IMG/VR virus record: IMGVR_UViG_3300017527_001400
Location: 14,409 to 78,408 of that record
Source of the DNA: a virus
Reading direction: 5' to 3' (one strand)
Length of the DNA: 64,000 bases
This document shows positions 4,995 to 39,207 of the stretch, piece by piece (positions within the stretch are counted from its first letter, which is position 1; every line of letters starts with the position of its first letter). A program made the translations under genes and the position numbers. Under the pieces are notes generated by a model. It ran no database searches and was not told where the DNA came from. It saw only the letters and a list, made by a program, of their open reading frames with translations.

Positions 4995-5012
4995 TCCAAA
5001 AAAGGAGTAGGT

Positions 5013-5312: not shown

Positions 5313-5313
5313 A

Positions 5314-5409: not shown

Positions 5410-5418
5410 AGGAAAACC

Positions 5419-5658: not shown

Positions 5659-5687
5659 GCGAGGTTCAATTCCTCGGGGATTCGCCA
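5611..5687 (+). tRNA. tRNA-Trp(CCA)
   Basis: GGGTCCC/GGGATTC acceptor, G73, CCA; TCGGG-CTCCAAA-CCCGA anticodon arm; CGAGG-TTCAATT-CCTCG T arm. Confidence 0.82.
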
Positions 5688-9737: not shown

Positions 9738-9977
9738 ATGCCCTACGATTACAAAAAAGATTTTCAAGATCCATATGAAAAGCTCATGTCTGATCTGTTG
9801 GGTCACTCTGGTAAGATGATGATCTTTGAAACAATTGGCTGGACACATGCCTATTTTTGTTCTGAGCTCGATAAGGGCAATGATCCAAGGAAGATCGATG
9901 TTTCTGAATTAATTGCAAAGGCACAAAAGGATTTGATTGATGAAAGGCCGGAGACCACGCCGGTTGACTCGGGATAG
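9738..9977 (+). CDS. hypothetical protein
   Basis: AAGGA RBS, 79 aa. Confidence 0.6.
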   Translation: MPYDYKKDFQDPYEKLMSDLLGHSGKMMIFETIGWTHAYFCSELDKGNDPRKIDVSELIAKAQKDLIDERPETTPVDSG

Positions 9978-10069
9978 ACGCTTCTATTGTTACGGATGTT
10001 ATTTCCCTGAAAGAAGATCTGGTATTGATAGAAGAGATCAACCCGATCGACGGAAATAAAAGGAGAAAT

Positions 10070-10255
10070 ATGAAACCAGCTCGTGTTTTATTCTGGATAA
10101 TTGCGGCTATATTTTGCGGAACCTTGTACTGGCAGATGGTTTCTGATATGCTTGCCTCTGAAAACGGCAAGGTTGTTGCCTTTGGAGTCATATCTCTTAT
10201 TGGAATAGCCGCAGGTCTTGTAGGTTATTATGACAGAATATTTAAATGCAAATAA
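10070..10255 (+). CDS. small two-TM membrane protein
   Basis: AAGGAG RBS; two hydrophobic segments. Confidence 0.65.
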   Translation: MKPARVLFWIIAAIFCGTLYWQMVSDMLASENGKVVAFGVISLIGIAAGLVGYYDRIFKCK

Positions 10256-10418
10256 TTAGAGATATGGTATTTAAGCTGACGAAAATCTCACACGAGATGC
10301 ATCTTCTTGTTTGCAGATACAATATAGAGCCAACACCAGAACTAATGTTTCAAATCAAAACCTGTTCTAACGCCATGGCAGAGCTCAGCGACGAAATAAA
10401 CGATCTTGTGAGGATGAA

Positions 10419-10817
10419 ATGAAATTAAGAAAACACGCTAAACAGGAACTCGATATCCTGGGATGGTCTCACTCCGATTACAAAGACCTTCTTAACCTGC
10501 TAGACTCCCTTGAAAAGCAAAGTCACTCTGTTCAAGAACTACCCTTCTTTCTTGGTGTATTTGCCAAGCTCGCCCAATTCGAACCACTCGCTCCATTACA
10601 AGGAACCAAAGAAGAATGGATGAATGTGGATCTCGAAACCCTCCAAAACAAAAGATGTTTCCATGTCTTCAAGAACATAAAGACCGGCCAGGCTTATGAT
10701 GCTAGAGGCTGTGTGTTCAGGAAGCCCAACGGCGCCTGTTATGTCGACAAGCGAAGCCATGTGAAAATAGTTTTCCCATATACTCCAAAAACCAAATATA
10801 TAGATGTGCTCAAATGA
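10419..10817 (+). CDS. conserved phage hypothetical protein
   Basis: FEPLAPLQGTKEEW..QNKRC.HVFK motif. Confidence 0.7.
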   Translation: MKLRKHAKQELDILGWSHSDYKDLLNLLDSLEKQSHSVQELPFFLGVFAKLAQFEPLAPLQGTKEEWMNVDLETLQNKRCFHVFKNIKTGQAYDARGCVFRKPNGACYVDKRSHVKIVFPYTPKTKYIDVLK

Positions 10818-11065
10818 AAGACACTGCAAGAAGCTATTATGACCAAGTTAAAGACCAATATCCAGAATCTGGGATATTTAGAGCTTGCACCGGACTAACA
10901 CATTTCTTGGTTGGCGGTGTCATGCATACCACTGTTAAGGAAAGTCGAAAAATAAAAGGTTTGTGGAATGCATGCAAAAAGGCAAAACGAATGGCCATAT
11001 GGCGAGATTTTTGGGCACCACACGAAGAAGAAACTGGAATAGCGTTTTGGGTAGAAAGACAATGA
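10814..11065 (+). CDS. hypothetical protein
   Basis: ATGA overlap with previous ORF. Confidence 0.55.
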   Translation: MKDTARSYYDQVKDQYPESGIFRACTGLTHFLVGGVMHTTVKESRKIKGLWNACKKAKRMAIWRDFWAPHEEETGIAFWVERQ

Positions 11066-15640: not shown

Positions 15641-16018
15641 ATGAAATTCGAAGGATTTAAACATCAAGAACACGAATCGGCAGCAATTCAACTGGGTCAA
15701 GCAATCAAAACCATATCAGGCATGACCATGCAGATATTGGCCAAATACGGTCGAAGTTCACTGGCCTACAAGAAAGCCGTTGTTGCGCAGCGACGGGCCT
15801 TTGGGTTACAGGATGAAATGAACGACCAATATATGTTCGAACGAGCGGAAATCTTAAAGCAGGTTCCGGAAGTAATGCACAACGGTTTTCCGGTCGATTT
15901 GTACCTGAATTGGGATGACCACAATGTGGTGGGCGCAGGCGGCAATGACGCTATGGCGGATACCCACAAAGTAGTACCCATCGATTCTGGCAAATTCGGC
16001 GAATCTCAGTCCGTGTAA
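15641..16018 (+). CDS. hypothetical protein
   Basis: AAGGAG RBS. Confidence 0.65.
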   Translation: MKFEGFKHQEHESAAIQLGQAIKTISGMTMQILAKYGRSSLAYKKAVVAQRRAFGLQDEMNDQYMFERAEILKQVPEVMHNGFPVDLYLNWDDHNVVGAGGNDAMADTHKVVPIDSGKFGESQSV

Positions 16019-16059
16019 GGTGCTACATTGTAGTGTTTTTCTCTGGGTTTTGTGAAAAA

Positions 16060-16410
16060 GCGAAGAAAAAAACATGAAAAAAACGACCGAAAAAAAGGTT
16101 GAATTAGTGGAAAAAAAAGTTGAATTTTCGGGAAAAAAGGTTGAATCAACCAAAAACTTTTTTGGGCTATGCTGAATGATATCACAGACTTAACCCAAAT
16201 TAGGCGTTATTCTATATAGGGTAATAAAACAAGTCATATGGTAGGTGGGTGGAGAAAAGGTTGACAATGAATGATATCAGTAGGTTATGAAGAATATTCA
16301 ACTAAAAACACGTATTATTCAACCAAAAAGCAATGAATATTCAACCAAAAAAAGAAAATAATCAACTAAAAAGACATGAAAAAAGAAAAATTCAACCTTT
16401 TTTTATTGTG
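16060..16410. repeat. iteron-like repeats, putative replication origin
   Basis: A-tract-GTTGAA at 16098, 16119, 16140 (21-nt period) and inverted TTCAAC at 16297, 16318, 16340, (16361), 16391; AT-rich, between primase and helicase. Confidence 0.65.
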
Positions 16411-16442: not shown

Positions 16443-18101
16443 ATGCTAAATGAATACCGACTTTTTGGGCCTCCGGGGACTGGAAAAACGACAAGACTTG
16501 CAAAAGTGTCAATTCCAAAAGCTGTAAAGAAATACGGGTCTGATGGAGTTGTGGTAACGTCCTTTACAAAAGCTGCAGCAAAGCAAATAATCAGTAAAGG
16601 ATTAGAGGTTGACGATAATTGTGTGGGGACTCTTCATTCTCTGTGCTACAGGGCTTTGGGTTTTCCAAAATTGACCGCCCAGGATAACTTCTCTGAAAAA
16701 TGGAACACGGCATATCCGAGACTTCGGGTCTTTGGGTCTAAACTCGGATCCTTAGATGAAGGTGGTGTGAATGAGCGTGGTGATACTGATGGAGACTCGT
16801 TGCTGTATAAGATGGACATCGCAAGGGCGAAGATGATTCCAAAAGAAAAATGGTTTCAGCCTGTTGCCAGCTTTTATAACAAGTGGACGGCATTCAAAAA
16901 TCTTCATGCTGTAATGGATTTTACAGATCTTATAGAAGAAGTTGTTAAACAGGGCATACCGCCACCCGGAAAGGCGAAGGTAATGTTTGTGGATGAAGCC
17001 CAAGACCTGACGCCTCTTCAATTAAGTTTAATCCGAGGTTGGGGAGAAAATATGGACTGGATCATGCTGGTTGGAGATGATGACCAAACCATCTATTCTT
17101 TCACCGGTGCCAGTCCAGATGCCTTTCTGCAACCAGAAATACCAGACGACAGGAAAATGGTCCTTGATCAATCATATAGAGTGCCCATCTCTGTGCATAA
17201 CGTTGCCAAGACTATTACGAATCGTATTAGATATCGTGAGGCCAAGGAATACAAGCCCAGACCTGAGAACGGAGCTGTTAGATCGATCGAAGAGACATAT
17301 TCTGGCCCAGACGAAATAATCGATGACATCGAAAAGCAGTTGAAATTGAAAAGAACTGTTATGGTTTTGGCATCGTGTTCATATATGATTGAACCGGTAA
17401 GGAAGGCACTGGTCGAAAACAACATGCCTTTCGGCAATAAATACAGGTCTACGAGAGGTGACTGGAATCCGCTCGCAAGAGGCGGTGAATCAAGGACATC
17501 CGCAAGAGACCTGCTATTTACATTCCTATCGAGTGGTTCGGATAATAAATATTGGAATGTACCACAGTTTGTAGCTTGGGCTTCACATATAGGAGTAGGG
17601 AAAAACGGCCTAAAGCGTGTTGTTGGTAAAAAGGTCCTGACTAAACTTAAAGAAGAGATCGAAAAGAACTCAAAAGGTCTCAACAGCACAGAGAACGTTT
17701 TAAGCTTGGCTCTTTCTGATGATGCTATAGAGCCGGCATTGGCCAGAGACGTAGACTGGCTGATGACAAGCCTGCTTCAGAAAAGAAGAAAGCCTCTTGA
17801 ATATCCAATCAAGTTATATAAGAAATTCAAAACAAAAGACATTCTTGAAGGTCATCCGCCAATAACCATAGGAACGATCCATTCGGTAAAAGGAGGAGAA
17901 TCTGATGTGGTTTATCTTTACCCAGATATATCAGCAGCTGCTGCAAGAGAGCAGGCAAATGGCGATATTTCTGAAGATTCTCTGTTTCGATTATTTTATG
18001 TTGGTGTAACTCGAGCAAAACATGAGCTTGTTCTAATGTCACCATTAATGAAGAGATCTGGTAGAGGAAAGCAAAAATTAGCTTATTTTGTAGACATATA
18101 G
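16443..18101 (+). CDS. UvrD/Rep-like SF1 helicase
   Basis: GPPGTGKT, VDEAQD, GDDDQTIY, QSYR, TIHSVKGGE, FYVGVTRAK. Confidence 0.92.
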   Translation: MLNEYRLFGPPGTGKTTRLAKVSIPKAVKKYGSDGVVVTSFTKAAAKQIISKGLEVDDNCVGTLHSLCYRALGFPKLTAQDNFSEKWNTAYPRLRVFGSKLGSLDEGGVNERGDTDGDSLLYKMDIARAKMIPKEKWFQPVASFYNKWTAFKNLHAVMDFTDLIEEVVKQGIPPPGKAKVMFVDEAQDLTPLQLSLIRGWGENMDWIMLVGDDDQTIYSFTGASPDAFLQPEIPDDRKMVLDQSYRVPISVHNVAKTITNRIRYREAKEYKPRPENGAVRSIEETYSGPDEIIDDIEKQLKLKRTVMVLASCSYMIEPVRKALVENNMPFGNKYRSTRGDWNPLARGGESRTSARDLLFTFLSSGSDNKYWNVPQFVAWASHIGVGKNGLKRVVGKKVLTKLKEEIEKNSKGLNSTENVLSLALSDDAIEPALARDVDWLMTSLLQKRRKPLEYPIKLYKKFKTKDILEGHPPITIGTIHSVKGGESDVVYLYPDISAAAAREQANGDISEDSLFRLFYVGVTRAKHELVLMSPLMKRSGRGKQKLAYFVDI

Positions 18102-18210
18102 CGCCGACATGTTATATTAACCCTTTGGTGATAAGCGCCTATGTATACAATAAACTCGGTAGCAAAAAGCGCAGATACCCGGCTCGTCTAGCAACCCATG
18201 GGAAACGAGT
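18100..18210 (+). repeat. TIGR-like dual-repeat array 1 (9-nt spacers)
   Basis: AGCGCCG acatgttat ATTAACCCT ttggtgata AGCGCCT atgtataca ATAAACTCG gtagcaaaa AGCGCAGATACCC ggctcgtct AGCAACCCA tgggaaacg AG. Confidence 0.7.
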
Positions 18211-18432
18211 ATGAATTTAAGAAGAGAAAGATGCGGATTATGTATTCATTTTCGCCATCATGAAGACTTTAAACAGTTCAGGTTGGCTTATCAGTGTCAA
18301 TACTATTATCTTTCATTTCAGCAAAGAAAATATGTGAATTGGAATACAAATAGATGCGAACGTTTTGAACGAAGCTTTAAGAGAATGATTAAATACATTG
18401 CAAGGAATAGTAAATGTCGCCAATTACGCTAG
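18211..18432 (+). CDS. small RCGxC Cys-rich protein (paralog family)
   Basis: RCGLCIHF...C...CERFER. Confidence 0.55.
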   Translation: MNLRRERCGLCIHFRHHEDFKQFRLAYQCQYYYLSFQQRKYVNWNTNRCERFERSFKRMIKYIARNSKCRQLR

Positions 18433-18782
18433 ACGTCGATGAAACAGGCGAAGTAGTACGAACAGATAGACCCAAGCAAGAAGTCGCTGAAAAAGAGCAA
18501 TCAGATGCAATTCCGAAGTGTTTTAACACATTTCCGTGCGACCAGTTGACAAAAACGGATGATAAGTGCTACTGTAACGTCTCAAACGGGGCAATATACT
18601 CTCTGGATGAATGTCCAAGAGGATATTGGTATATACCAGAGAGACGAAAACCAAAGATTCAAAATCGAACTTCCTGGTATGAGGAAAATCATAGGTTACG
18701 CCAGGAGGAAATCAATGGGAAAAATCCTATGGACCGACACGGAGACGACGGGACTGGACTCAAAGAAAAACTCAGCGATTGA
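18414..18782 (+). CDS. hypothetical Cys-rich protein
   Basis: AAGGA RBS; overlaps 5' end of exonuclease. Confidence 0.5.
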   Translation: MSPITLDVDETGEVVRTDRPKQEVAEKEQSDAIPKCFNTFPCDQLTKTDDKCYCNVSNGAIYSLDECPRGYWYIPERRKPKIQNRTSWYEENHRLRQEEINGKNPMDRHGDDGTGLKEKLSD

Positions 18783-19314
18783 AATAGCTGCCATTGTTGA
18801 AATCGATGAAGAAGTAAAAGATCAATTTTCAATCCAAATCAAACCACTTGAAAATAAAGAAATCAGCGATAGGGCTCTTGAAATAAATGGCCGCACCCGG
18901 GAGGAGATCGCCGAATTCACTCCAGTTGATCTTGCGATATTAAGCTTTAAGAAAAGGCTGGAAAAACATGTCAACAAATTCGACTCGTCAGACAAATTTA
19001 TTGTTGCAGGATATAATATTGGTTTCGACATAAACTTTATTCGAGCTCTTTTCCATGACGTCGGTGATAAGTATTATGGCAGTTACTTCTTTAATTGTCC
19101 TCTTGACGTCTACTCCGACGTTGCAAAGCTCGTGTCAAAAACAGATCTCAGACTCCCTAATTATAAGCTTAGCACAGTCTGTAACCATATTGGAATCGAG
19201 ATTGATGCGCACGATCCAGTAAGCGACATAACTGCCACCCGGGAGCTTTATTATCGATTGCAAACAATGACTCCGAAATATGTTCGAAGAAAAAATCCAG
19301 TGACGGCCCAGTAG
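18715..19314 (+). CDS. DnaQ/DEDDh 3'-5' exonuclease
   Basis: AGGAGG RBS; DTETTG, GYNIGFD, AHDPVSDI motifs. Confidence 0.9.
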   Translation: MGKILWTDTETTGLDSKKNSAIEIAAIVEIDEEVKDQFSIQIKPLENKEISDRALEINGRTREEIAEFTPVDLAILSFKKRLEKHVNKFDSSDKFIVAGYNIGFDINFIRALFHDVGDKYYGSYFFNCPLDVYSDVAKLVSKTDLRLPNYKLSTVCNHIGIEIDAHDPVSDITATRELYYRLQTMTPKYVRRKNPVTAQ

Positions 19315-19423
19315 CTCCCAGAAAACCAACGCGCCAGAGGCCCTTAAAAGGGAAGGTACCCATTAGAGAAAAAGGCCCGCGCTAACCAAGTTACCCAAAG
19401 AACGCTTGGCCATAAAGGAGTAG
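19304..19423 (+). repeat. TIGR-like dual-repeat array 2
   Basis: CGGCCCA gtagctccc AGAAAACCA acgcgccag AGGCCCT taaaaggga AGGTACCCA ttagagaaa AAGGCCCG cgctaacca AGTTACCCA aagaacgct TGGCCA. Confidence 0.75.
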
Positions 19424-19426: not shown

Positions 19427-19642
19427 ATGGAAGGATGGAAATGTCCAGTATGCGGAAGGGGTCTTGCACCATTTGTTAATGAATGCCCATGCTATAAAGT
19501 AGATACTGTACAAGATGGGATCTCATGTATAGATTATTATTGGGAAACTTGTCCATTATGTTGGGTTTCTCATAGAAGAGGTGAGCCATGTAATTGCGGA
19601 TCGGTTTATAGTAGTGGTTCAGCCCCCATGCCGGCCCATTGA
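19427..19642 (+). CDS. small zinc-finger protein
   Basis: AAGGAG RBS; GWKCPVCGRG..P...ECPC. Confidence 0.65.
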   Translation: MEGWKCPVCGRGLAPFVNECPCYKVDTVQDGISCIDYYWETCPLCWVSHRRGEPCNCGSVYSSGSAPMPAH

Positions 19643-19856
19643 AAGAGAGCAATCCAAAGGATAGAAGGCCCTCGGAAACCAAGCAATCCATAAGACCCTA
19701 GGCCAGGAAGTTATATTAACACGGTACGCTGAAGCCTCAAGGGTCAAGTAATCCATAGGATAGTAGCTAAAATAGGCCCTCGGGAACCGAGCAATCCATA
19801 AGACCCTAGGCCACTATTTCGAAGCCATTGTTTAAGAGTAACCCTAAAGGAGGGAG
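19632..19856 (+). repeat. TIGR-like dual-repeat array 3 (largest)
   Basis: CGGCCCA ttgaaagag AGCAATCCA aaggataga AGGCCCT cggaaacca AGCAATCCA taagaccct AGGCCA ggaagttat ATTAACACG gtacgctga AGCCT caagggtca AGTAATCCA taggatagt ...; 34-nt period. Confidence 0.8.
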
Positions 19857-19859
19857 CTT

Positions 19860-20183
19860 ATCCCAAGAAGAACCGAAAAGGCAGTTGTTAAGACCATCAA
19901 AGATGCTCTGAATAGTCTCGATCATTGCATGATTAGAAAGCGAAGATTGTATATTAGAGGCGATCCCGACTTAACAGGTTGTTATCTTGGGACACGGCTC
20001 GAGCTTGAAGTAAAAACAATCGGCGGTAGCCCGACATCACTACAACTCAAGCGAATTGACGACTGGCAAAAGCTCGGATGTGTCTCAGCAGTTGTCTGGT
20101 CATTAAGTGACGTTATTAAAGCGATGGATTCGATTCTTTTAAGTAAAGACAAGAAATTGCTTGCAAATATGATCGAAGACTGA
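19860..20183 (+). CDS. VRR-NUC family nuclease/resolvase
   Basis: GDPDL..ELEVK....PT.LQ motif; frame extends upstream to PRRTEKAVVKTI behind an AGGAGG RBS, with ATC at the start position. Confidence 0.75.
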   Translation: MPRRTEKAVVKTIKDALNSLDHCMIRKRRLYIRGDPDLTGCYLGTRLELEVKTIGGSPTSLQLKRIDDWQKLGCVSAVVWSLSDVIKAMDSILLSKDKKLLANMIED

Positions 20184-20326: not shown

Positions 20327-20602
20327 ATGAAAAAACCAAATATAAAAGTAAAAAGATGCGGATTCTGTAAACATTACAGGAAACTTCGCATTTCTATAAA
20401 TGGAGTCACAAGCGGATACGGCCCAATCATAACATTCTGCAACTTCTATGGAGACGAGCCAGCCCTCGACATAAACCATAACAAGTCGGCATGTGAAAAC
20501 TTCAAACGAGATTTTAAGAAAACTGCTATATATATAATCAACACAAGGAGAAGCCGTTATGACAACCAAAAGAAACGAAGAAAACATCGAAAGGTTAGCT
20601 GA
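20327..20602 (+). CDS. small RCGxC Cys-rich protein
   Basis: RCGFCKHY...C...ACENFKR. Confidence 0.6.
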   Translation: MKKPNIKVKRCGFCKHYRKLRISINGVTSGYGPIITFCNFYGDEPALDINHNKSACENFKRDFKKTAIYIINTRRSRYDNQKKRRKHRKVS

Positions 20603-20715: not shown

Positions 20716-21162
20716 TTGGTTGATATGGATAAATATAAAAAAAGATGCGGCCTGTGTTCTCATTCTATAAAAAAATATTACATAGAAGACGATCGAACCT
20801 ATACTATAAGAGAATCTAATACATGCGACCTCTCTTTAACTCGAACCCGATATGTTGGCGATACAAAAGCTTCATGTAATAATTTTGCAATAGACATAAG
20901 GAAGCTCGCAAAATACCTGCATCGCATCGAAACGGATTCAAGATATAAGCTTATGAATAAGCGAGTCATAGGTCCAGACCCAATGCGAAGGCGATGTGGA
21001 CTATGTTGTTCTTTTGTCAAACAATATAGCGGCTTCCATTATTATATAAAAGGGAAATGCAGAAGAAACATTAGAGGTCTTGTCGACCACAACGAAGACG
21101 CATGTCGAAAATTCAGAAGAAGTAAAAAAAGAGTTGATGCATATATGAAAAAATGCCGTTAG
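20716..21162 (+). CDS. RCGxC Cys-rich protein with two tandem domains
   Basis: RCGLCSHS..SCNNF and RCGLCCSF..ACRKFRR. Confidence 0.65.
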   Translation: MVDMDKYKKRCGLCSHSIKKYYIEDDRTYTIRESNTCDLSLTRTRYVGDTKASCNNFAIDIRKLAKYLHRIETDSRYKLMNKRVIGPDPMRRRCGLCCSFVKQYSGFHYYIKGKCRRNIRGLVDHNEDACRKFRRSKKRVDAYMKKCR

Positions 21163-21285
21163 AAGTAAGTAACCCATGGCTAAAGAGCATTATAAATACC
21201 ATCCGGAATTAGCAATCCATCACAAACAAGTATAACAAAAAGTCATAGTAACCATAACAAGCGGTAATACCACCCCAAAGAGTGC
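21153..21285 (+). repeat. TIGR-like array 5 (degenerate)
   Basis: ATGCCG ttagaagta AGTAACCCA tggctaaag AG..ACCA tccggaatt AGCAATCCA tcacaaaca AG. Confidence 0.6.
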
Positions 21286-21476
21286 GGTGACGACGAATCG
21301 CGGATTTTAAGCCCGAAGATCGTTGTTTTGGCGTAAAAATGCCCGAAAATCCGGTGTTTTTGCGCCTTTTTTTGCTAATTTTGGATGAAAACGATGGACG
21401 AGGCCAGGGGAACGCAGGGTGAAGGGGTCTTTCTCGTGCAAACTCGGCGTAGTCAGACATAAAGTGGCTCGTAAAT

Positions 21477-24218: not shown

Positions 24219-24482
24219 CGATTCACAGGTAGGAAAACCACTGCGACATATAACGGCACACAGGGGTCTTCCTCCCAGCGTACGCAAAGAGTTCTTTTCA
24301 GTTTCCATTATATAGTCCGCGATTTTCATTTTGAAAGAAAATTCGGGCACCTCAAAATCTGCGCCAACGGTAAAGATGTTGGCACAGATTTATGCATTTA
24401 CGAAGTTTTCTTGCAAAATGAAAATCGCAGCTATCTTATTCTTTGTAAAAGAACACAAACAATAACAAAGGGAGAGAAAACA

Positions 24483-25562
24483 ATGCAAAAACAATTAAAA
24501 CTTGACGCAGTGGTTGATTTCGAAGAATTCTTGATTACAGAGAAAGTAGCACAGGTTGCCCTGGAAACAGCAAGAAACCTCGCAGACAGACCCGACGACA
24601 AACCCACAGTAACTTACATTAAAAACGGACCTCGAAGAATCATCCATTGGGTCAAAAACATGGAGAAACAATGGGTCCGCAGAGAAAGCATCACACACGA
24701 CAGCTACTGGGCACCAACCGAACTTGTGGAATTCCACGATCTACGCCAAGCCAACAGAGAAGCCCTCCCGGAAGACCGAAGCGTTTCACAGGGGACAGAG
24801 CACCCAAAAACCCCGAAATTCCCATCAGACAAATCCATCTCAGTCGAATGCAAGGTAGGCGATCACAAACGCTTACTTGCTTTCGAAATCAAAAACAAAG
24901 AAGCTCAACCTTTCTGGAAGACGCTCACATGGCTCATGGAACAAACCAACCTATCAAGAAACCGCTGCATCCGGCTGCGAGACGCATTCACCGCTCTAAG
25001 CTTCGATCGAAAATGTATTCTCGGAATCATCGATGACATAGACAAACAATACGTATCCTACCTGGAAGCACTTGTGGAAGACCTGCCAATCCCACCTCCA
25101 ATACATTATGACCCAGAATTATACTCCGACCATGGCATCATTGACACAGATTCTCTCATAGCAACCATTTCCGAAGAGACACTGGGCGCCTCACTCCCAC
25201 AGGAATCAATCAGGAAACTCAGAACATTGATCGAACCAGAATTCGAAACTGAGGAAGAAAAGGAAGAAACGCCGGCACAGGTCTTCGGATTACGAAAGCT
25301 TTACTACGAAGAAGATGGATGTTCTCACGAATTCCTGTCATTTCTGAGATTCGCCACAGTAAGCGAAATCAAAGGCGTTATGAGATCACTCTTTCCACAG
25401 AAAAACTCAAAAGGCTATCTAATCAGAGCAAGATTCTGGTATCTCACAGCATCTCAAAGATCACAAGCTTGGACATACATCAATTGCCGAAGAGAGGAAC
25501 TGGGAATGATAAGCGAAGAATCTCAAGATCTCGATTTCACAGCCGACAAAGGAGGAAAATAG
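24483..25562 (+). CDS. hypothetical protein
   Basis: GGGAG RBS; 359 aa. Confidence 0.7.
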   Translation: MQKQLKLDAVVDFEEFLITEKVAQVALETARNLADRPDDKPTVTYIKNGPRRIIHWVKNMEKQWVRRESITHDSYWAPTELVEFHDLRQANREALPEDRSVSQGTEHPKTPKFPSDKSISVECKVGDHKRLLAFEIKNKEAQPFWKTLTWLMEQTNLSRNRCIRLRDAFTALSFDRKCILGIIDDIDKQYVSYLEALVEDLPIPPPIHYDPELYSDHGIIDTDSLIATISEETLGASLPQESIRKLRTLIEPEFETEEEKEETPAQVFGLRKLYYEEDGCSHEFLSFLRFATVSEIKGVMRSLFPQKNSKGYLIRARFWYLTASQRSQAWTYINCRREELGMISEESQDLDFTADKGGK

Positions 25563-25807: not shown

Positions 25808-25932
25808 CAGGCTTTTCCCACCATCGAACGACCCAGTAACCAACCCAACCTTTCGATCACGCAGGCACTACCCACCATCGGACTTCCCAGTCACCAACCC
25901 GGCTGTTCGATTACGCAGGCATCACTCACCCA
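25808..25932. repeat. 54-nt imperfect tandem repeat (~2.3 copies)
   Basis: CAGGC at 25808, 25862, 25916; shared CCCACCATCG..CCCAGT.ACCAACCC..TTCGAT.ACG. Confidence 0.75.
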
Positions 25933-26040
25933 AAGATCAAGACCAACCTCGCATGATTAGAGCGACCGGCTAAAAGACCGCCGTCGCTCTCAAAGCTCGG
26001 TACTTGCAGGATAACACAACTCAATTGAGCAGGTGATTCT

Positions 26041-26449
26041 CTCTACCGTTTCGATTTTCGATTTTTTCTGCAAGCTTTTTTTTCTCTCCTTGTTGAAGAC
26101 AGGTTTTTGGTGACTACATTAGATTCCGGGAAGAACCGTGCCAGCCGGCGACAAGGCGAGCCCAGCGATGCACCGGTATATGAGGGTGTAAAATCTAAGG
26201 ATGTAAACAGAACATCCTTAGATTTTACACCCTCATATACCTGTCCCTTTGCGGGGGATAAGACATCGCCTTCGCATGCAACTTGCAAACAGAGCAAGTT
26301 GCACGCCAAGCCGATATCCCCCGCAAAGGCACTGCCCTGCTGGATCGCCGCCTGGCACGGTTCTTCCCTAGTGGGTTGATGTTAGTCACCATAAACCTTC
26401 AACAAGGAGAGAAAAAATGCAGAAAAAATCGAAAATCGAAACGGTAGAG
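26041..26449. repeat. ~400-bp branched imperfect palindrome with inner perfect 30-bp hairpin
   Basis: CTCTACCGTTTCGATTTTCG...CGAAAATCGAAACGGTAGAG; perfect stem 26175-26204/26212-26241. Confidence 0.85.
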
Positions 26450-26842
26450 GGAATCGTGGATTGGGCGGGAGAGCATAACTGGAAATCCGGCAAAGGCTGG
26501 CACTACAGAGTGAAGCTTGTGTCGAAGCGTGTCGATCAGGTGATCCAAATAGACTGCTACAAAATGGCTCGACAGTCTGCAGCTGGCATGGTGCGTTCTA
26601 AGGCTGGATGGGATCACCGTCCGGAGTTGGCGATTCAGCAGGGCGATCGGGTGAGAGTACGAACGCCTCATTACAAAAGGGAGATGGACACCAACAAGAA
26701 CAGCCAGAAATATACTCGCCACATCTACTCGGTCAACTATACCCGAGAAATTGAGGTGTTGGAGAGGTTGGAAGCCTGCTTACCTCCATCCGCCTACGCA
26801 AACCCCAGTAATCAATCGGGTTCAGCACCGAAGCCTGCCTAA
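26417..26842 (+). CDS. possible OB-fold protein inside the palindrome
   Basis: AAGGAG RBS; VEGIVD...YRVKL...IQIDCY...IQQGDRVRV. Confidence 0.55.
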   Translation: MQKKSKIETVEGIVDWAGEHNWKSGKGWHYRVKLVSKRVDQVIQIDCYKMARQSAAGMVRSKAGWDHRPELAIQQGDRVRVRTPHYKREMDTNKNSQKYTRHIYSVNYTREIEVLERLEACLPPSAYANPSNQSGSAPKPA

Positions 26843-27499
26843 GTCCAATGGATGGTTGGGGTGCGAGCCTCAACCATCCAATCCTCCTAAGCCAAGCGAT
26901 TCTCTGACCCAGAAAGAAATCTCAGCGATTCACTACATTTCGACAAGACTCAGCGATGCAATGAATTTGGTGGAAAAGCACCACCAAATCCGTTGCCCTG
27001 CTAAGTCTTGACGAAAAGCAGCTCTCTGCTGTGATTTCTTTCTGGATCAGTTCTCTGCTTGGCTTAGGAGGATTGGATGGTTGAGGCTCGCACCCCAGCC
27101 ATCCATGGGGACTTAGGCAGGCTTCGGTGCTGAACCCGTTGATTACTGGGGTTTGCGTAGGCGGATGGAGGTAAGCAGGCTTCCAACCTCTCCAACACCT
27201 CACTTTCGCGGGTATAGTTGACCGAGTAGATGTGACTCGGTATTTCTGGGCTGTTCTTGTTGGTGTCCATCTCCCTTTTGTAATGATGCGTTCGTACTCT
27301 CACCCGATAGCCATGCTGAAGTCGCCAACTCCGGACGGTGATCCCATCCAGCCTAAGAATGCACTATGCCATCTGCAGACTGTCGAGCCATTTTATAGCA
27401 AAGATGTCTATTTGGATCACCTGATCGACTCGACACAAGCTACACTCTGTAGTGCCAGCCTTTGCCGGATTTCCAGTTATGCTCTCCCGCCCAATCCAC
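26456..27499. repeat. ~1.04-kb imperfect palindrome; right arm is a frameshifted inverted copy of the 26417 gene
   Basis: Arms 26456-26973 and 26981-27499, loop AAAAGCA; minus-strand ORFs 26922-27203 and 27064-27303 reproduce parts of the plus-strand translations. Confidence 0.88.
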
Positions 27500-27644: not shown

Positions 27645-27848
27645 ATGCGAAAAGCGATCTGCATCAGCCCAACCCAAAGATTCGAGGTCAACCAGCTATA
27701 TAGCTACGAAGTCACGATGGAATTCGAGGACTTATATGAACTTGGCAGACCGATGCCCATAAAGATAGAAACTAAAAAAATTTATATTGTTAACGGGTTT
27801 CATTTTTCGCAATACGAATTTGACAAGACATTCAGGAAATTCATATGA
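27645..27848 (+). CDS. small paralogous family protein
   Basis: MRKAICISPTQRFEVNQLYSY...EFDKTFRKFI. Confidence 0.65.
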   Translation: MRKAICISPTQRFEVNQLYSYEVTMEFEDLYELGRPMPIKIETKKIYIVNGFHFSQYEFDKTFRKFI

Positions 27849-28018
27849 AACGAGTCTTATGCTTTCAGCGATCGTTGCCATTCAAGGTAGGCGGATTATA
27901 TAGATTCATAATAGAAGAATATCAGGACAGAACCTACTATTTAGTTTACATCGGCAAAAGCTATCATGCTTATTCCAAACAATACTTCAAAGACCATTTC
28001 GTACCATTCATCCAATAG
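27845..28018 (+). CDS. small paralogous family protein (57 aa)
   Basis: MKRVLCFQRSLPFKVGGLYRF...YFKDHFVPF; translated by hand. Confidence 0.6.
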   Translation: MKRVLCFQRSLPFKVGGLYRFIIEEYQDRTYYLVYIGKSYHAYSKQYFKDHFVPFIQ

Positions 28019-28032
28019 CCATCGGAGATAAT

Positions 28033-28239
28033 ATGCCAAGTTACAATGACACAGTAAACATCTTAAAGGACCGCATCAAGGTTCTAATCAACGACAACCC
28101 GGAGATCCTACAAATCGACGATCCATGGAAGCTGTTCGATTTCGAGGCGCTCGTCGTCTCGGATCTCGACCCGTCCCTTTTCCAAGCACAGTGGGCCCTA
28201 TCACGAGCCAAGCAAGAGTGGCGACAAACTCACGGATGA
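28033..28239 (+). CDS. hypothetical protein
   Basis: GGAG RBS. Confidence 0.6.
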   Translation: MPSYNDTVNILKDRIKVLINDNPEILQIDDPWKLFDFEALVVSDLDPSLFQAQWALSRAKQEWRQTHG

Positions 28240-28472
28240 AGGCCCTCTGTATTCAATCGATCATACCGTTTCAAGTCGGCAACCTGTACAGGTGCACCAA
28301 GTTTTTGACACCGCTCGGAACAGCAGAAGCATGGTCGGTGTGGAATATCAGGCAACCAAATACTAAGGTAGGCGGATTATATAGATTCATAATAGAAGAA
28401 TATACAGATGGCGGATATAATTATATTATGTCCGTGAATACCTTCAACCAGTATTTCAGGAGATTCATATGA
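28236..28472 (+). CDS. small paralogous family protein
   Basis: MKALCIQSIIPFQVGNLYRC...TFNQYFRRFI. Confidence 0.65.
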   Translation: MKALCIQSIIPFQVGNLYRCTKFLTPLGTAEAWSVWNIRQPNTKVGGLYRFIIEEYTDGGYNYIMSVNTFNQYFRRFI

Positions 28473-29143: not shown

Positions 29144-29442
29144 TGTTAAAAGTTTTCAAATATCCACTAGAGATTCTGTCTTATCACCAAGTCGAGCTGC
29201 CAGTCGGCGCCAAGGTCTTGAAGTTCGAAAACCAGAACAACGTCCCAACGATCTGGGCCCTGGTTGACCCTTCCCCCTCAGTCCCAAAAGAAACCCGGCT
29301 CTTTCGGTTGGCCGGCACAGGCCATGAAATCGACGAAGAGCATCTCAAATTCATCGATACCGTCTTCATCAATCAATTTGTCCTCCATTTCTTTGAAGTC
29401 CTGACCGAGAGGGCCGCCCCTCGTGAATCCTGCAATCTGTAA
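29143..29442 (+). CDS. conserved phage hypothetical protein
   Basis: VFKYPL..VELPVGAKVL..QNNVPTIWALVDP..GTGH..VLHFFE pattern. Confidence 0.7.
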   Translation: MLKVFKYPLEILSYHQVELPVGAKVLKFENQNNVPTIWALVDPSPSVPKETRLFRLAGTGHEIDEEHLKFIDTVFINQFVLHFFEVLTERAAPRESCNL

Positions 29443-29663
29443 TGGCCATCATCATACCCAAAAGAAACATCCAGGCACTGGATCTCTACCTGCTTAAAAA
29501 AGGCAAGCCCTACAAAGTGGTAAAACACTCAAAATATTTAAATCTGGTATCTGCTGACTACATACACTCGGCAGGGAAAATGACAATACCATTGGGATTC
29601 TTTCATTTATCCTCTTCTGATATTATTGTTTTTTCTGGACAAATAAATGCAAAGGGCTTTTGA
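29442..29663 (+). CDS. small paralogous family protein
   Basis: MAIIIPKRNI...KKGKPYKV...DIIVFSG. Confidence 0.55.
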   Translation: MAIIIPKRNIQALDLYLLKKGKPYKVVKHSKYLNLVSADYIHSAGKMTIPLGFFHLSSSDIIVFSGQINAKGF

Positions 29664-30061
29664 AAGGCTCAACCAAAAGAATGTAAAGAAAATGGTAATT
29701 TGATTGATGTTGATACATTACCAATGAAAGCACTTTTGGACATGGTGTTGTGTTGGTTTGTATTAAAAATAAATGTATTTGTAGTTCAAAAGTATGTAAA
29801 GATGAAAGGATTTAATAATGAAAGAAATTAAATATGTATGGGTTGTTGAAGGAGAAGAAGGAGAAGATGTAAGTTGGATAGATACTATATTTGCTGATGA
29901 AAAAGATGCACAGATAGAAATGGATAGACTTAATAAAGAATACAAACAGCATAGTACTGTTTATTTTGTAGAAAAATATCCAATAAAATGAAAATAATAT
30001 AGTAAAGATTTAAAATTAGTCCGATTCGATTAACCCAATTACCACAAAAGAGGAGAAACCC

Positions 30062-30856
30062 ATGAGCATCGTGCTGAAAGCTATCGTCAGAGGCCATTAC
30101 GACTTACAAAAACTAAGAATTCAGGCTGGGAATCGAATTATTGCGAATTTTCGGTCAAAATTGGACATTGCGCCGTCCGATAAGGCTGAAAAAGCTGCCT
30201 TATCGTCAATAAAGACCGAATTTGCGGCTCTACCAGCCATAAAGTCCAAGAAACACTTCAAAGGCACGCCAATAATTGCCGAATATCCGGAATATGTGCT
30301 GGTTAAGAGCTACGTTGCCCTGTTGGAAAGCGAAAAACAAGTCATCAAAGAAATCACCCAGATCGTCAACGAACATCCGCTGTACATCTCGTTCCTATCC
30401 TCCATCAAGGGTATTGGTCCACTCATGACCGGGATCCTCCTGACAGAAATCGATATCTCCAAGGCCGATACGCCGGCAGCCCTGTGGAAATATGCTGGAC
30501 TTGACGTCACCTCAAAAGGTGAGGGCCGCTCCCGCCGGGCAGAGCATCTAGTCGACCGAGAATATACCAAGGCCGACGGAACTGTCGCCACAAAGAAATC
30601 CATTACCTATAATCCACGCCTGAAGACCAAACTTATGGGAGTCCTGGCACCATCCCTTATCAAACAGCAGTCTCCGGACTATGCTCCAGTTTATTACGAA
30701 TACAAAACCCGTCTCGAAACCAGTCGACCGGAAATGGTCAAAGGCCATATGCACATGATGGCCCTGCGATACATGACGAAGCGCTTCCTGAAGCATCTGT
30801 ATTTGAATTGGAGGAAACTCGAAAATCTGTCGGTGACTGAACGATGGACATCGTAG
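30062..30856 (+). CDS. Nop/IS110-like RNA-binding protein lacking RuvC (TasA-like)
   Basis: GAGGAG RBS; N-terminal YDLQKLRIQAGNR coiled coil; IKGIGPL...EIDI.KA.TPAALWKYAGL; YNPRLKT; H.MALRYM.K.FL..LY..WR; no DEDD domain. Confidence 0.8.
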   Translation: MSIVLKAIVRGHYDLQKLRIQAGNRIIANFRSKLDIAPSDKAEKAALSSIKTEFAALPAIKSKKHFKGTPIIAEYPEYVLVKSYVALLESEKQVIKEITQIVNEHPLYISFLSSIKGIGPLMTGILLTEIDISKADTPAALWKYAGLDVTSKGEGRSRRAEHLVDREYTKADGTVATKKSITYNPRLKTKLMGVLAPSLIKQQSPDYAPVYYEYKTRLETSRPEMVKGHMHMMALRYMTKRFLKHLYLNWRKLENLSVTERWTS

Positions 30857-31143
30857 ATGTCCTACATAAAGGAATGGTAATGGGGGCAATATCAAAATCA
30901 AAAGCTTATGCAGGCGCAGCAGTGCACCAGCCCGAAGTCACAATAAAAGCTGTATGCTTGGAACCGGTCTTTATCTTCGAATTACACAGGCTTTATAAAT
31001 TCAAAGTGTTGATACAATCTGACTCCGACGGATACCTAACTGAAGAGAAAACATACAGGCACAACGAAGAAATTGACGACGGCCTCTGCTGGATAGCCCT
31101 TGGAGAAGAAGCCTTCAAAAAGCATTTCAGAAAGTTTCAATAA
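30844..31143 (+). CDS. small paralogous family protein
   Basis: IKAVCLEPVFIFELHRLYKF...AFKKHFRKF. Confidence 0.55.
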   Translation: MDIVDVLHKGMVMGAISKSKAYAGAAVHQPEVTIKAVCLEPVFIFELHRLYKFKVLIQSDSDGYLTEEKTYRHNEEIDDGLCWIALGEEAFKKHFRKFQ

Positions 31144-31400
31144 TGATACTGATAGCAAAAAGAACGATAAAATTACAAGATATAAAGAAATTGATCCCGG
31201 ACTCTCATAAGTTCAAGTTGCCACCGAAACGGGAACATTATGAAGGAACGGTCATCTTTACTGAAGGTAAGCCCTACAAAGTCACCATCAGCGAGACCGG
31301 TGTGGGCTCTATCCAAACAGATGCTGGAATATTCTTTATATACGCCAAGGGTGACGGAGAAGTCATTCCAACAGAGTTCTTCAGGATCTTCACGAGATGA
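31143..31400 (+). CDS. small paralogous family protein
   Basis: MILIAKRTI...IFTEGKPYKV...FFRIF. Confidence 0.65.
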   Translation: MILIAKRTIKLQDIKKLIPDSHKFKLPPKREHYEGTVIFTEGKPYKVTISETGVGSIQTDAGIFFIYAKGDGEVIPTEFFRIFTR

Positions 31401-31585
31401 TCCTGATTGCCAGATTTGATATTATGCTCGGCAAAAACATTATCTTTAAAAAAGGCGAAGTATCAAAAGCATGGTTTGATGGAAAAGACATGGCATATTT
31501 TGATGATCCAAAGTGCCATATACGTGTTGATAGAATCGGCTACTATTTCATAATATTTAAAGGTGATAATGGTCATAATAGCTAA
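31397..31585 (+). CDS. small paralogous family protein
   Basis: MILIARFDI...IFKKGEV...YFIIFK. Confidence 0.6.
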   Translation: MILIARFDIMLGKNIIFKKGEVSKAWFDGKDMAYFDDPKCHIRVDRIGYYFIIFKGDNGHNS

Positions 31586-31742
31586 AAAAGACATATTGAT
31601 AAACAAACAGATAGTCTTCAAGAAGGGCCAAGTCATCAATGCCTGGAGAGGAGGCGATAAATTCGTCTATTACAAAGGCGGTCGAATGGGAGAGACTGTC
31701 ATGAGAGAGCTTTTCGTAGTCTTTAAGGATGATCCAATATGA
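31569..31742 (+). CDS. small paralogous family protein (57 aa)
   Basis: MVIIAKKDILINKQIVFKKGQV...LFVVFK; translated by hand. Confidence 0.55.
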   Translation: MVIIAKKDILINKQIVFKKGQVINAWRGGDKFVYYKGGRMGETVMRELFVVFKDDPI

Positions 31743-32011
31743 TCTTGATCTGCAAAAAAACCATATCAAGTAAAACGTTCAAAAAAATAATACTCGGCTT
31801 TAATTCAAAAATGGGTGATGACTTAAAAAAAGACCTCGAGTCTGACAAAGCTGTATTTATAGAAGGCAAACATTATAAAATGAACGTTAATAAAGATAGA
31901 AGAATCATGAGCAGTGAAATTGGCACAATAACCATGTTTCACTCCAGCAAAATAATGGAAGCTCTATTACAAGAATGCTTCATAATCTTTTCAAAAGGAG
32001 AAAAAGAATGA
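31739..32011 (+). CDS. small paralogous family protein
   Basis: MILICKKTI...VFIEGKHYKM...CFIIFSK. Confidence 0.65.
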   Translation: MILICKKTISSKTFKKIILGFNSKMGDDLKKDLESDKAVFIEGKHYKMNVNKDRRIMSSEIGTITMFHSSKIMEALLQECFIIFSKGEKE

Positions 32012-32385
32012 CAACACAAGGCCAACGAAACTATGCAGTAGAAAGAATAAGAGGGAAAGTCGGTGAAAAATTGGAAGCAGCCAAGCATGAGTTCCATATC
32101 GAAGGAAAAGGACTTACAAACATGCAACGGCTGGATCTTATCCGAAAAGGAAAGGTTACGCTTCTCCCAAAGAAAGAATTGAGTTTACTGCGGAATTGGG
32201 ACCGTACCAACATCAAAGACGTCTTTGATTTCAGTGAATATGCATGGGAATCCGGCGTAGACAAGAAAAAATACGGCAAACGCGAAAAAGCCATTCTCAC
32301 AGAATCCAACCGGATTATTGACGAAGTTATGCTTGGCGATGCCAAAGAAGCCATGAAACTTCTCAAAGCCTTCGAAACCTTCTAA
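32008..32385 (+). CDS. hypothetical protein
   Basis: AAGGAG RBS. Confidence 0.7.
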   Translation: MTTQGQRNYAVERIRGKVGEKLEAAKHEFHIEGKGLTNMQRLDLIRKGKVTLLPKKELSLLRNWDRTNIKDVFDFSEYAWESGVDKKKYGKREKAILTESNRIIDEVMLGDAKEAMKLLKAFETF

Positions 32386-32573
32386 TGAAGTTTATTTGCC
32401 TGAAATCTGTCCATATATTTGTAGAAAACCATTTATATACGCTAACAAGCTGCGAAACAGCTTATGACCTAAAAACAGGCAGAGCAATGGTCAGATTTAA
32501 GTTTTTAGACAATAATACGTTTTATACGGCAAAAGAGAAAGAATTCAAAAAAATGTTCAGGAGATTCGACTAA
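32385..32573 (+). CDS. small paralogous family protein
   Basis: MKFICLKSVHIFVENHLYTL...EFKKMFRRF. Confidence 0.6.
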   Translation: MKFICLKSVHIFVENHLYTLTSCETAYDLKTGRAMVRFKFLDNNTFYTAKEKEFKKMFRRFD

Positions 32574-37398: not shown

Positions 37399-37601
37399 AG
37401 TCTACATAGAAATAATGCTGACCTTTATTGCAGGATTTTTGATATTCATATTGATTGAGCTTTACAGTTTCCACGATGATTTCAGTCATGAATATCGTCC
37501 TGAAAAACACTATCACAGTACGATCGATGCTCCGGTGGCTGCCGGCGGAAAGATCGTCTTCATCGATCAAGACTGTGACCAACCAGACGAACTCGGAGAT
37601 C

Positions 37602-38066
37602 ATGATGAATGAAAAAGATCCAGATGGCCTAAACCCAAGCGACCCGGGAGCAAAATTAGATGCAGATAAACCCATGGCATCCCTACTGCAATTATTTTCA
37701 AGAGCACTCATCGAAATTGCCAAGGTGGGGACATTCGGAGCTAATAAGTATAGTCGAGGTGGCTGGCAACACGTTGCTGACGGTGAAGTCAGATATTCAG
37801 ACGCACTCTGGAGACACTTACTTGCGGAAAATCTTGAAGAACGCGACCTTGATTCCGGGCAGCTGCATATGGCTCAGGTAGCATGGAACGCTTTGGCAAG
37901 ACTTGAACTTAATTTAAGGAGGAAAGATGGAACATTATCTAGTACAGAACAGCTCTCAGGGAAGGATCAAATTCCTGCACCTATCACTGGTGGGGGAAGA
38001 CATGCAGTCAGTTTGGGGTCTCATCGGGGGAAAGACCCAGACCAAGATGACTTCTTACCAACCTAA
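37602..38066 (+). CDS. dATP/dGTP diphosphohydrolase domain protein (DUF5664-like)
   Basis: GAK.DADKP..SLL, V.TFGANKY...W, YSDALWRHL, DSGQLHMAQVAWNAL. Confidence 0.85.
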   Translation: MMNEKDPDGLNPSDPGAKLDADKPMASLLQLFSRALIEIAKVGTFGANKYSRGGWQHVADGEVRYSDALWRHLLAENLEERDLDSGQLHMAQVAWNALARLELNLRRKDGTLSSTEQLSGKDQIPAPITGGGRHAVSLGSHRGKDPDQDDFLPT

Positions 38067-39207
38067 AAATGTTGGGCGATCAAATGAAATGTCAATAATG
38101 GACGTTGCAATAGCTGACATCGAACGAAAGGTAGCCAGAAAGGTGAAAAACGGTTATCGAATCGTACCCGATCTGGACAACATTGGCACAGCTGCTGAGC
38201 CAGACAAAATGGACTTTGATAACCCGCCAACGTCATTCTGCCCGTCCAAACCAATCTCACAACCGACGGCCAAGCACATTGAAAAAGCAACTGCTGGAAC
38301 ACACATATATCAGGTTAAAGAAAACGGCATGTGCCATTATGCCTTTTTTGGCAGCACGGGTAAGGTTCGAATCTTTACCCGAAGAATGAATGATCATACA
38401 GCTAAATACCCAGGCATCGCTTTGAATCTGAAACAAGCATGCATACCAAAGAACAGCGTCCTTGGAATCGAGCTCGTCGTTTCTCCAGGGATTGGCAACC
38501 ATCAAGAAAATCATAAATATATGCAACAGATCTCAAAGGTCGATACACATAAAGGCGAGCTCAAAGATGATCTTACAGAATCGTTTGCCAGACAGCAGAA
38601 AAATCAAGTCAGAGGTTGTGTGTTCTCGATTTATTACTGGGATAGTGAAGAGATCTGGAAAAAGAAATCCAATGAATCTCTCATCTTGATTGAAACGAAG
38701 TTTCATAGCAGGGACAACGGAAATCGATTGTATGCTCCAAAATCTATTCCATTGAGAGGAATCGAACAAGCAAGGACATGGTTAAAGCAACAAAAAGGTA
38801 TGATCGAAGGACTGGTGCTGTGGGATCTTGATGATAAGGTTGACGTTGGATTCTCTGGCAAACCCAAACGCCGGGCATCATACAAGATAAAGATCGTGCT
38901 TGAAACAGATGTCATCGCTTATGGTTGGGAAGAAGGAAAGACAAAGGGTGAGATAGGATCCTTACTCATTGGAAAACTTAATAAAGACCATGGATTACCA
39001 GTGGGCGTTTTTGATGCAAGCCAGCTTATTGAGATGGGCAAGGTCGGCTCAGGTTTAAAAGGCGACCTGCTTGATCCAGCCAACTGGGACTTCCCACAAG
39101 TCATAGAGATCAAGTATGACGTTCAAAATCCAAATGGCAGCTTTATTTTCCCACGCTTCAGTAAGGTCCACGAAGACAAGGTGCCGGCCGAATGTATCCA
39201 AGAATAG
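37927..39207 (+). CDS. ATP-dependent DNA ligase with WGR-like N-terminus
   Basis: WGLIGGK..., motif I QVKENG, IFTR, EGLVL, YKIK, GKVGSG, FPRF. Confidence 0.85.
   Translation: MEHYLVQNSSQGRIKFLHLSLVGEDMQSVWGLIGGKTQTKMTSYQPKNVGRSNEMSIMDVAIADIERKVARKVKNGYRIVPDLDNIGTAAEPDKMDFDNPPTSFCPSKPISQPTAKHIEKATAGTHIYQVKENGMCHYAFFGSTGKVRIFTRRMNDHTAKYPGIALNLKQACIPKNSVLGIELVVSPGIGNHQENHKYMQQISKVDTHKGELKDDLTESFARQQKNQVRGCVFSIYYWDSEEIWKKKSNESLILIETKFHSRDNGNRLYAPKSIPLRGIEQARTWLKQQKGMIEGLVLWDLDDKVDVGFSGKPKRRASYKIKIVLETDVIAYGWEEGKTKGEIGSLLIGKLNKDHGLPVGVFDASQLIEMGKVGSGLKGDLLDPANWDFPQVIEIKYDVQNPNGSFIFPRFSKVHEDKVPAECIQE

Follow-up and report, generated by a model that had tools for sequence, protein, structure and literature searches.

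The stretch of DNA analysed here, referred to as the window, comprises 64,000 nucleotides (bases 14409–78408) of the IMG/VR virus record IMGVR_UViG_3300017527_001400, which is linear, 78,408 bases long and 86% complete as estimated by CheckV; all coordinates below are those of the window. By its gene content the record derives from a tailed phage, with genes for a large terminase (TerL) and a P22-type coat protein and an open reading frame (ORF) of tape-measure size. The gene of principal interest, tasA, encodes TasA, a nuclease-free effector of the TIGR-Tas type, and no other tas gene is present in the 78-kb record. Some 10 kb upstream, on the same strand and split among replication genes (a helicase at 16443–18101, an exonuclease at 18715–19314 and a VRR-NUC-like gene at 19929–20183), lie short repeat units with two spacers each. 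We regard it as fairly probable that gene and units belong together as a phage TIGR-Tas system, in which a TasA effector is served by distant upstream dual-spacer guide units.

The tasA gene and its product

The tasA ORF is open over 264 residues from an ATG start with GAGGAG upstream, and its product has two parts: coiled-coil dimerisation helices (residues 1–102) and a Nop-type RNA-binding domain (residues 103–264) containing the motifs GIG (residues 117–119) and WKYAGL (residues 142–147). The sole Pfam match above the gathering threshold is PF02371 (Transposase_20) at residues 111–161, with a weak sub-threshold match to DUF7678 also listed; no RuvC/DEDD, HNH or PF01548 domain was found in TasA by Pfam. 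The preceding ORF of 57 residues stops 70 nucleotides upstream of tasA, and a hidden N-terminal nuclease domain is excluded because this is all the in-frame upstream space there is. In alignment with TasR, the first helix of TasA falls at the beginning of the coiled coil (9mty residue ~110–120), past the RuvC domain. These results bear out the architecture proposed in a preliminary description of this DNA, namely a coiled coil and a GIG/WKYAGL domain with neither RuvC nor HNH.

Assignment to the family is similarly clear. TasA matches the NCBIfam model TIGR_Tas_endo (NF052498) with 141.5 bits (cut-off 100; E 3.5e-41), over model positions 2–215 of 215, and this model never exceeds its cut-off in 14 control genomes. 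With the IS110 model NF033542 the score is only 38.3 bits (cut-off 140), and no more than model positions 123–274 of 343 are covered; because the match is confined to the middle of the model, both catalytic parts of an IS110 transposase are missing. Sequence matches in the PDB are to TasR (9mty) and TasH only, and no direct or inverted repeats that could represent insertion sequence ends bracket tasA, in line with the remark in the preliminary description that such ends are absent. The ORF at 30062–30856 is thus a TasA, as the preliminary description had proposed; the NF052498 model is passed, the IS110 model is failed, and relatives carry TIGR arrays beside the gene.

Predicted structure and dimerisation

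An AlphaFold2 model of TasA built with 42 sequences has a mean pLDDT of 93.6 and consists of long N-terminal helices (residues 2–34, 40–56 and 75–102) followed by a helical/beta C-terminal domain. The top Foldseek matches of this model are 9mty, 9w04, 9vzx and 21kl. The comparison with TasA, IS110 and Nop5 structures suggested in the preliminary description places the fold nearest to TasR (9mty; E 1e-9, TM 0.65) and eight TasH chains (E 5e-8 to 4e-7, TM 0.58–0.68), followed by IS621 and ISCro4 (E 1e-3 to 9e-3, TM about 0.5) and, well behind, Nop5 and Prp31 (E about 1, range 0.8–1.7; TM 0.30–0.37).

A two-copy prediction gives an ipSAE of 0.65 compared with 0.01 for the best control, with a contact agreement between runs of at least 91% and a partner pLDDT of at least 83; of 30 proteins solved as pairs, 20 come up to the mark used for ipSAE, as does one of 23 solved as single chains. 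TasA is therefore predicted to form a coiled-coil homodimer through an interface of residues 2–29 and 62–101, and the pass may reflect likeness to, or memory of, solved Tas dimers; because such dimers exist, the prediction is to be read as likeness and not as proof.

TIGR-type units upstream of tasA

There are seven clean dual-spacer units in the window, located between 19304 and 20325 and all on the + strand, as are tasA and the surrounding genes; a single regular expression finds none on the − strand. Each consists of a 7-nucleotide edge repeat ([A/C/G]GGCCCN), a 9-nucleotide spacer A, a 9-nucleotide loop repeat (AG..A.CC[A/T]) and a spacer B of 9 nucleotides (10 in one instance), with a period of 34 nucleotides and an aligned consensus of.GGCCC.-N9-AG.aA.CCA-N9-AGGCC. 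Their positions are listed in Table 1, together with those of degenerate units. Mini-array A sits between the exonuclease gene and an ORF for a 71-residue zinc-ribbon-like protein, and unit C1 ends one nucleotide before the ATG of ORF 20327–20602. The VRR-NUC-like gene that comes next has spacer B of unit B5 (AAAGGAGGG) as its ribosome-binding site, and a shared context for translation initiation is another possible reading of B5. The partial unit at the start of tasA could be what is left of an ancestral array next to the gene, or could resemble the context of a ribosome-binding site by chance.

Table 1. Positions of tasA and of TIGR-type units in the window
Feature	Position	Strand	Description
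tasA	30062–30856	+	Nuclease-less TIGR-associated protein, 264 residues
Mini-array A	19304–19413	+	Units A1–A3; edge [A/C]GGCCCN, loop AG..A.CCA, spacer B of 9 or 10 nucleotides, terminal edge TGGCCAT
Mini-array B	19632–19814	+	Clean units B1, B2 and B4, with degenerate B3a and B3b (19700–19773) in between
Unit B5	19823–19857	+	Degenerate; best match in the window to the model built from relatives only
Unit C1	20285–20325	+	GGGCCCT + 9 nucleotides + AGCAACCCT + 9 nucleotides + AGGCCAT
Units D1–D3	18098–18210	+	Degenerate; edge AGCGCC/AGCGCA, 34-nucleotide spacing, weak loops; assignment doubtful
Units E1–E3	21155–21270	+	Degenerate; loops AGTAACCCA, AGCAATCCA and AGTAACCA; irregular 43- and 38-nucleotide spacing
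Partial unit	30042–30067	+	Weak (E 0.098); CCA + 9 nucleotides + AGAAACCCA, over the tasA ribosome-binding site and ATG

Several features set these units apart from chance occurrences. First, the pattern GGCC-N30-GGCC is present six times in the window where 0.34 would be expected, and not one of 100 shuffled sequences reaches six or has more than two. Second, of nine exact matches to AGYAAYCCA in the 64 kb, eight are at 18.19–21.73 kb on the + strand. Third, the repeats are conserved between clean units and the spacers are wholly different, with the exception of B2 and B4, which differ at two of 34 positions only and look like the product of a recent duplication. Fourth, an independent, sequence-only model built from 89 units of relatives, none of them from the window, places 13 of its 33 matches in the window on the + strand of 18.1–21.8 kb, where about one is expected, each individually weak (E 0.03–10). 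The box D (AG) and box C (CC[A/C]) motifs and the loop repeat AGCAATCCA match those of arrays beside tasA in relatives.

The units do not fold better than shuffled sequences (z −0.15 to +1.3), which fits dual-repeat guides and not stem-loop guides; a reading of the arrays as stem-loop arrays was rejected on the same ground. A promoter-like site (18091–18118, overlapped by D1–D3) and a terminator-like hairpin 3′ of E1–E3 (21353–21366, or 21353–21374 with its T-run) bracket the region of the units, both as weak consensus matches only. The preliminary description had placed arrays throughout 18.1–21.3 kb and made tasA their effector. TIGR-type units do exist there, upstream of tasA and on its strand, but the clean part is limited to 19.30–20.33 kb, and the parts at 18.1 and 21.2 kb are degenerate. 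The assignment of TasA as their effector is supported by the shared strand, the box motifs of the family and the lack of any other tas gene in the record, and TasA would accordingly be expected to bind array RNA.

Relatives and the position of their arrays

TasA has 585 homologs of about 285 residues that are 40–50% identical, and we fetched 57 loci from IMG/VR and 80 from metagenomes; the closest homolog, P0002, is absent from the 80. Most of these have dual-repeat TIGR arrays of 5–24 units with a 36-nucleotide period and 9-nucleotide spacers; the edge repeat is AGCGAGCCA or a variant, and the loop repeat is AGAAACCCA, AGACAACCA, AGCAACCCA or AGCAATCCA. A strict pattern finds arrays in 65 of 91 loci, and in all but one of the 65 the array is within 300 nucleotides of tasA. 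The period is 36 nucleotides in 117 of the 123 loci for which it is clear; apparent periods of 33 and 30 nucleotides in L022 and L010 are scattered chance matches. SpTasH comes from Salicola phage CGphi29, which tblastn also identifies among named phages, along with Acidianus tailed spindle virus.

The units of the window, by comparison, are 9.7–10.8 kb upstream of tasA, the nearest clean one ending at 20325. A view of how this may have arisen is provided by a distant kin phage (L003/L146), whose TerL is 52% and TasA 47% identical to those of the window, and in which the same order of genes is seen (helicase, exonuclease, VRR-NUC … tasA … AAA ATPase). Its array lies directly after tasA, and no units were found between its exonuclease and VRR-NUC genes. 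This synteny with an abutting array argues that tasA is old in the lineage and that it is the position of the guides that changed in the phage of the window.

The C-terminal processing dyad

Homologs of TasA typically end in the tail Y-x-E-A-K-L-G-x-x-H, which is present, in this form or as a visible variant, in 117 of 120 homologs and in all but one of the 108 complete ORFs in the fetched loci. Profile alignment places the motif on the sequence ...RPLY289VQEKLGH296 of SpTasH, whose residues Y289 and H296 catalyse the processing of pre-tigRNA, and guide maturation is reported to be essential for TasH function (PMC13421893). The window TasA has W262 at the position of the tyrosine, ends at residue 264, and thus lacks the Y/H dyad. 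Two ways of recovering the tail were considered and discarded: translation by read-through (...RWTS*MSYIKEW*) and translation of an overlapping frame (MDIVDVLHKG...), neither of which contains Y.EAKLG..H.

Only one other relative has a cut TasA tail. This is L024 (gene at 9923–10864), whose protein ends in ...HPFKEN; its array, at 15791–16190, is 5 kb downstream of the gene and has 36-nucleotide units with AT-rich repeats (TATAAATCA / TTAAAATCA). The L024 phage has the helicase and other genes in common with the window.

Comparison with known systems

TIGR-TasA systems of the dual-repeat type, exemplified by FpTasA of Flavonifractor plautii (Faure et al. 2025, PMC12045711), are the closest known counterparts, as are the relatives fetched here from metagenomes and phages, at 45–50% identity. 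As in these, the window has a phage-borne solo Nop-domain protein with a coiled coil, and alternating edge and loop repeats that begin with AG and end with CC[A/C], with two 9-nucleotide spacers per unit; some dual-repeat relatives have exactly the same loop repeat, AGCAATCCA. The differences are of three kinds. The window unit is 34 nucleotides long with a 7-nucleotide edge (AGGCCCN), whereas theirs is 36 nucleotides with a 9-nucleotide edge; the window arrays are of 1–5 units, split and ~10 kb from the gene, whereas theirs have 5–24 units within 300 nucleotides of it; and the protein is without the Y...KLG..H dyad. Dual-repeat guides have been described as uniformly 36 nucleotides long (bioRxiv 10.64898/2026.09.09.750476), and the units of the window fall outside a definition of dual-repeat arrays by a uniform 36-nucleotide unit with repeats of 8–12 nucleotides. 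An array beside the tas gene is typical of these systems without being strictly defining, and the window departs from this arrangement too.

TasA resembles TasR (TaTasR, 9mty) and TasH (SpTasH; 9w03, 9w04 and 21kl) in its Nop domain and coiled coil, with a dimer predicted via the same helices, but it has no N-terminal RuvC or HNH domain, and the equivalents of SpTasH Y289 and H296 are not both present. With the stem-loop TIGR-TasA proteins (PlTasA, BlTasA and MbTasA) it has in common the absence of both a nuclease and the Y/H dyad, and stem-loop guides can occupy flexible positions or sub-arrays (PMC12045711; bioRxiv 10.64898/2026.09.09.750476, 10.64898/2026.08.11.744272). The units of the window, however, have no extended palindromic stems, no CUU motif at a stem base was seen in them, and the nearest relatives of the protein are all of dual-repeat types. 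IS110/IS621 bridge-RNA recombinases have a similar Nop-like RNA-binding domain (PF02371; Foldseek E 1e-3), whereas TasA has neither a DEDD domain nor a C-terminal Tnp domain, scores below the cut-off of that family and is not encoded on a mobile unit. Archaeal and eukaryotic Nop5 and Nop56/58 resemble TasA distantly in fold, and their guides follow a similar box C/D logic; TasA lacks a fibrillarin-binding N-terminal domain, and k-turn guides are absent.

Proposed function and alternative explanations

Published TasA proteins act as guide-binding transcriptional repressors (PMC12045711; bioRxiv 10.64898/2026.09.09.750476); MbTasA is an RNA-guided transcriptional repressor, and a structure of target-bound PlTasA is available (PMC12045711; bioRxiv 10.64898/2026.09.09.750476, 10.64898/2026.08.11.744272). 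By homology to FpTasA, PlTasA, MbTasA, TasR and TasH, the mini-arrays would be transcribed with the early/replication operon, and a TasA dimer would bind each unit of ~34 nucleotides through the box C/D motifs of its edge and loop repeats. The two 9-nucleotide spacers would each base-pair with a different strand of an 18-bp DNA site, at which the nuclease-less complex would block transcription or replication of the target. Host or competitor DNA is the probable target, as the phage itself contains no match. Since the Y/H dyad is missing, maturation of the guides would have to rely on some other RNase, such as one of the host, or have been dispensed with.

A more specific proposal is that a dual-repeat-type TasA has here abandoned self-processing: the edge has shortened from 9 to 7 nucleotides, the dyad has been lost, tiny arrays are placed in gaps of the early/replication operon, and the guides are either matured by a host RNase or used within mRNA, possibly occluding ribosome-binding sites. 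The shortened edge and the lost dyad would fit together in this one genome, because the edge repeat is the site that the dyad cuts. We advance this proposal tentatively, as a possibility with the odds against it. It depends on the system being functional, and on that point we lean towards a functional one.

Several observations weigh against a working effector with distant guides. Beyond the loss of the dyad, the arrays are short (1–5 units), partly degenerate and far from tasA; TasA has the longest terminal branch in a tree of 41 proteins (0.82 compared with a median of 0.37); and its similarity to the nearest homolog (P0002, 69% identical) is lost past residue 184. Targets were sought as composite 18-bp sites in both strand geometries and two spacer registers, with gaps of 0–3 bp, and as paired half-sites within 24 bp. 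No self-target with two or fewer mismatches is present in the 78-kb genome, and matches with 3–4 mismatches are not significantly above chance; in the 2.2 Mb of loci fetched from IMG/VR and metagenomes, among them two fragments whose TerL is 85% identical, there is one match with two mismatches where about two are expected. The lost dyad, the long branch and the break in similarity to P0002 would fit a TIGR-TasA system in decay, in which the adjacent array and the 3′ end of the gene have been lost and the upstream units are eroding remnants without working guides. Such decay would also account for the tryptophan at the aromatic position, for the 19 of 104 conserved columns at which TasA deviates (including a change of R to M in the GHRH motif) and for the degenerate units at 18.1, 19.70–19.77 and 21.2 kb, and the essential role of guide maturation in TasH (PMC13421893) lends it weight. 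Against this, the ORF is intact over its 264 residues, 85 of the 104 conserved columns are kept and most of the changes are conservative, and the model is of high confidence (pLDDT 93.6). Seven units with both repeats intact and diverged spacers are unexpected under neutral decay, B2 and B4 show a recent duplication, and stem-loop TasA proteins function without the dyad (bioRxiv 10.64898/2026.09.09.750476). We therefore judge decay to be rather unlikely, while taking it as the most serious of the alternatives.

A role in cis is conceivable as well, with TasA binding unprocessed units or loop-like motifs at the ribosome-binding sites of phage genes, its own among them, and thereby tuning translation with no need of processing or of a DNA target. 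Units or loop-like motifs of the form A[G/T]NAACCC[A/T] are indeed located 0–35 nucleotides before start codons at 18190, 19837, 20301, 21722, 22219, 30054 and 32839, spacer B of B5 is itself a ribosome-binding site, and the loss of the dyad and the want of a DNA target would find an explanation. But regulation of translation is not known for any Tas protein, none of the clean units A1–A3, B1 and B2 coincides with a ribosome-binding site, and the motifs at 19837 and 32839 are part of a longer common context (TAACCC[AT]A(A)AGGAG[GA]GAGCTTAT) that may be a duplicated initiation region; we consider this explanation improbable. The seven start-proximal A[G/T]NAACCC[A/T] sites all lie in 18–33 kb, and the start-proximal AACCC[A/T] motifs may be a separate regulatory element rather than TIGR loops. 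Least probable by far is that the gene is a truncated or domesticated IS110 transposase unrelated to the upstream repeats. The names in use point that way, as Pfam has the label Transposase_20, PHROGs labels the family 'transposase' and some databases call the homologs 'Transposase IS116/IS110/IS902'. The protein itself does not: the IS110 score is far below the cut-off, with the DEDD and C-terminal catalytic parts absent, while that of the TIGR-Tas model is above it; IS621 is much further away in fold than TasR and TasH are; the gene has no bracketing repeats; and relatives adjoin TIGR arrays, with tasA in a syntenic position in the distant kin phage L003.

Gene neighbourhood and other features

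The best TerL matches among named phages are only 34–38% identical and are from unrelated hosts, and a megablast comparison of the window at 17–37 kb with 50,697 phage records gave no match. The neighbours of tasA are small ORFs without functional annotation in PHROGs, in agreement with the setting among small phage genes reported in the preliminary description. Two families of small paralogous genes are present on either side of tasA. Members of the first (27645–28472, 30844–31143 and 32385–32573) have the C-terminus ...F(K/R)(K/R)F, and those of the second (29442–29663 and 31143–32011) have a MILIAK/MILICK start or a KGKPYKV motif, within which falls a 19-nucleotide direct repeat at 29500 and 31264. 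It looks as though tasA was inserted into a tandem run of these small genes. Another group of small paralogs, at 18211–18432, 20327–20602 and 20716–21162, is Cys-rich with a common K(R/K)RCG(F/L)C start, and the repeat AAAAAGATGCGG recurs in these genes at 20350 and 20739; a TIGR-like unit or loop motif (18190 and 20301) immediately precedes two of the genes.

Elsewhere in the window, ORF 10419–10817 encodes a homolog of Tad3, an inhibitor of type I Thoeris (PF25185, E 7e-23), so that the same phage carries an anti-defence gene. The product of 37455–38066 has a dATP/dGTP diphosphohydrolase N-terminal domain (PF18909, E 2e-23) and its gene adjoins one for an ATP-dependent DNA ligase domain protein (37927–39207), a pairing that hints at nucleotide-pool manipulation or base modification. 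A long stretch at 26035–27499 is nearly self-complementary; it contains 32-nucleotide arms repeated at 26849 and 27074, and ORFs 26751–27011 (+) and 26922–27203 (−) encode near-identical peptides, both beginning MRCWRGWKPAYLHPPTQTPVIN. At 25808–25915, just 3′ of ORF 24411–25562, there is a non-coding 54-nucleotide tandem repeat of two copies that are 78–82% alike. Four tRNA genes (Met, His, Gln and Trp) are present at 1436–5687. The further proposal of the preliminary description, that the phage carries three ribonucleoprotein systems, found no support in quick checks: only tRNAs pass the Rfam gathering scores in the window, with no Y RNA among the matches, and Pfam assigns no family (E ≤ 0.01) to ORF 1816–2589, described as 'RAMP-like'.

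Significance

TIGR-TasA systems in phages are already known, having been published in 2025, and since the kind is known either way the value of this example is incremental. Its new aspect is that a 34-nucleotide unit, a lost processing dyad and guides located ~10 kb away in operon gaps occur together. This nearly complete (86%) genome presents effector and guides apart from one another. If the system is not functional, it offers an example of how TIGR-Tas systems decay. If it is functional, dual-repeat guides can mature without the dyad of a Tas protein, and array finders that search only beside tas genes will miss guides such as these. Should self-processing truly have been abandoned, the system would contradict the rule of a uniform 36-nucleotide guide and a conserved Y/H dyad (bioRxiv 10.64898/2026.09.09.750476), and would represent a natural intermediate between guide biogenesis in the dual-repeat mode and in the stem-loop mode.

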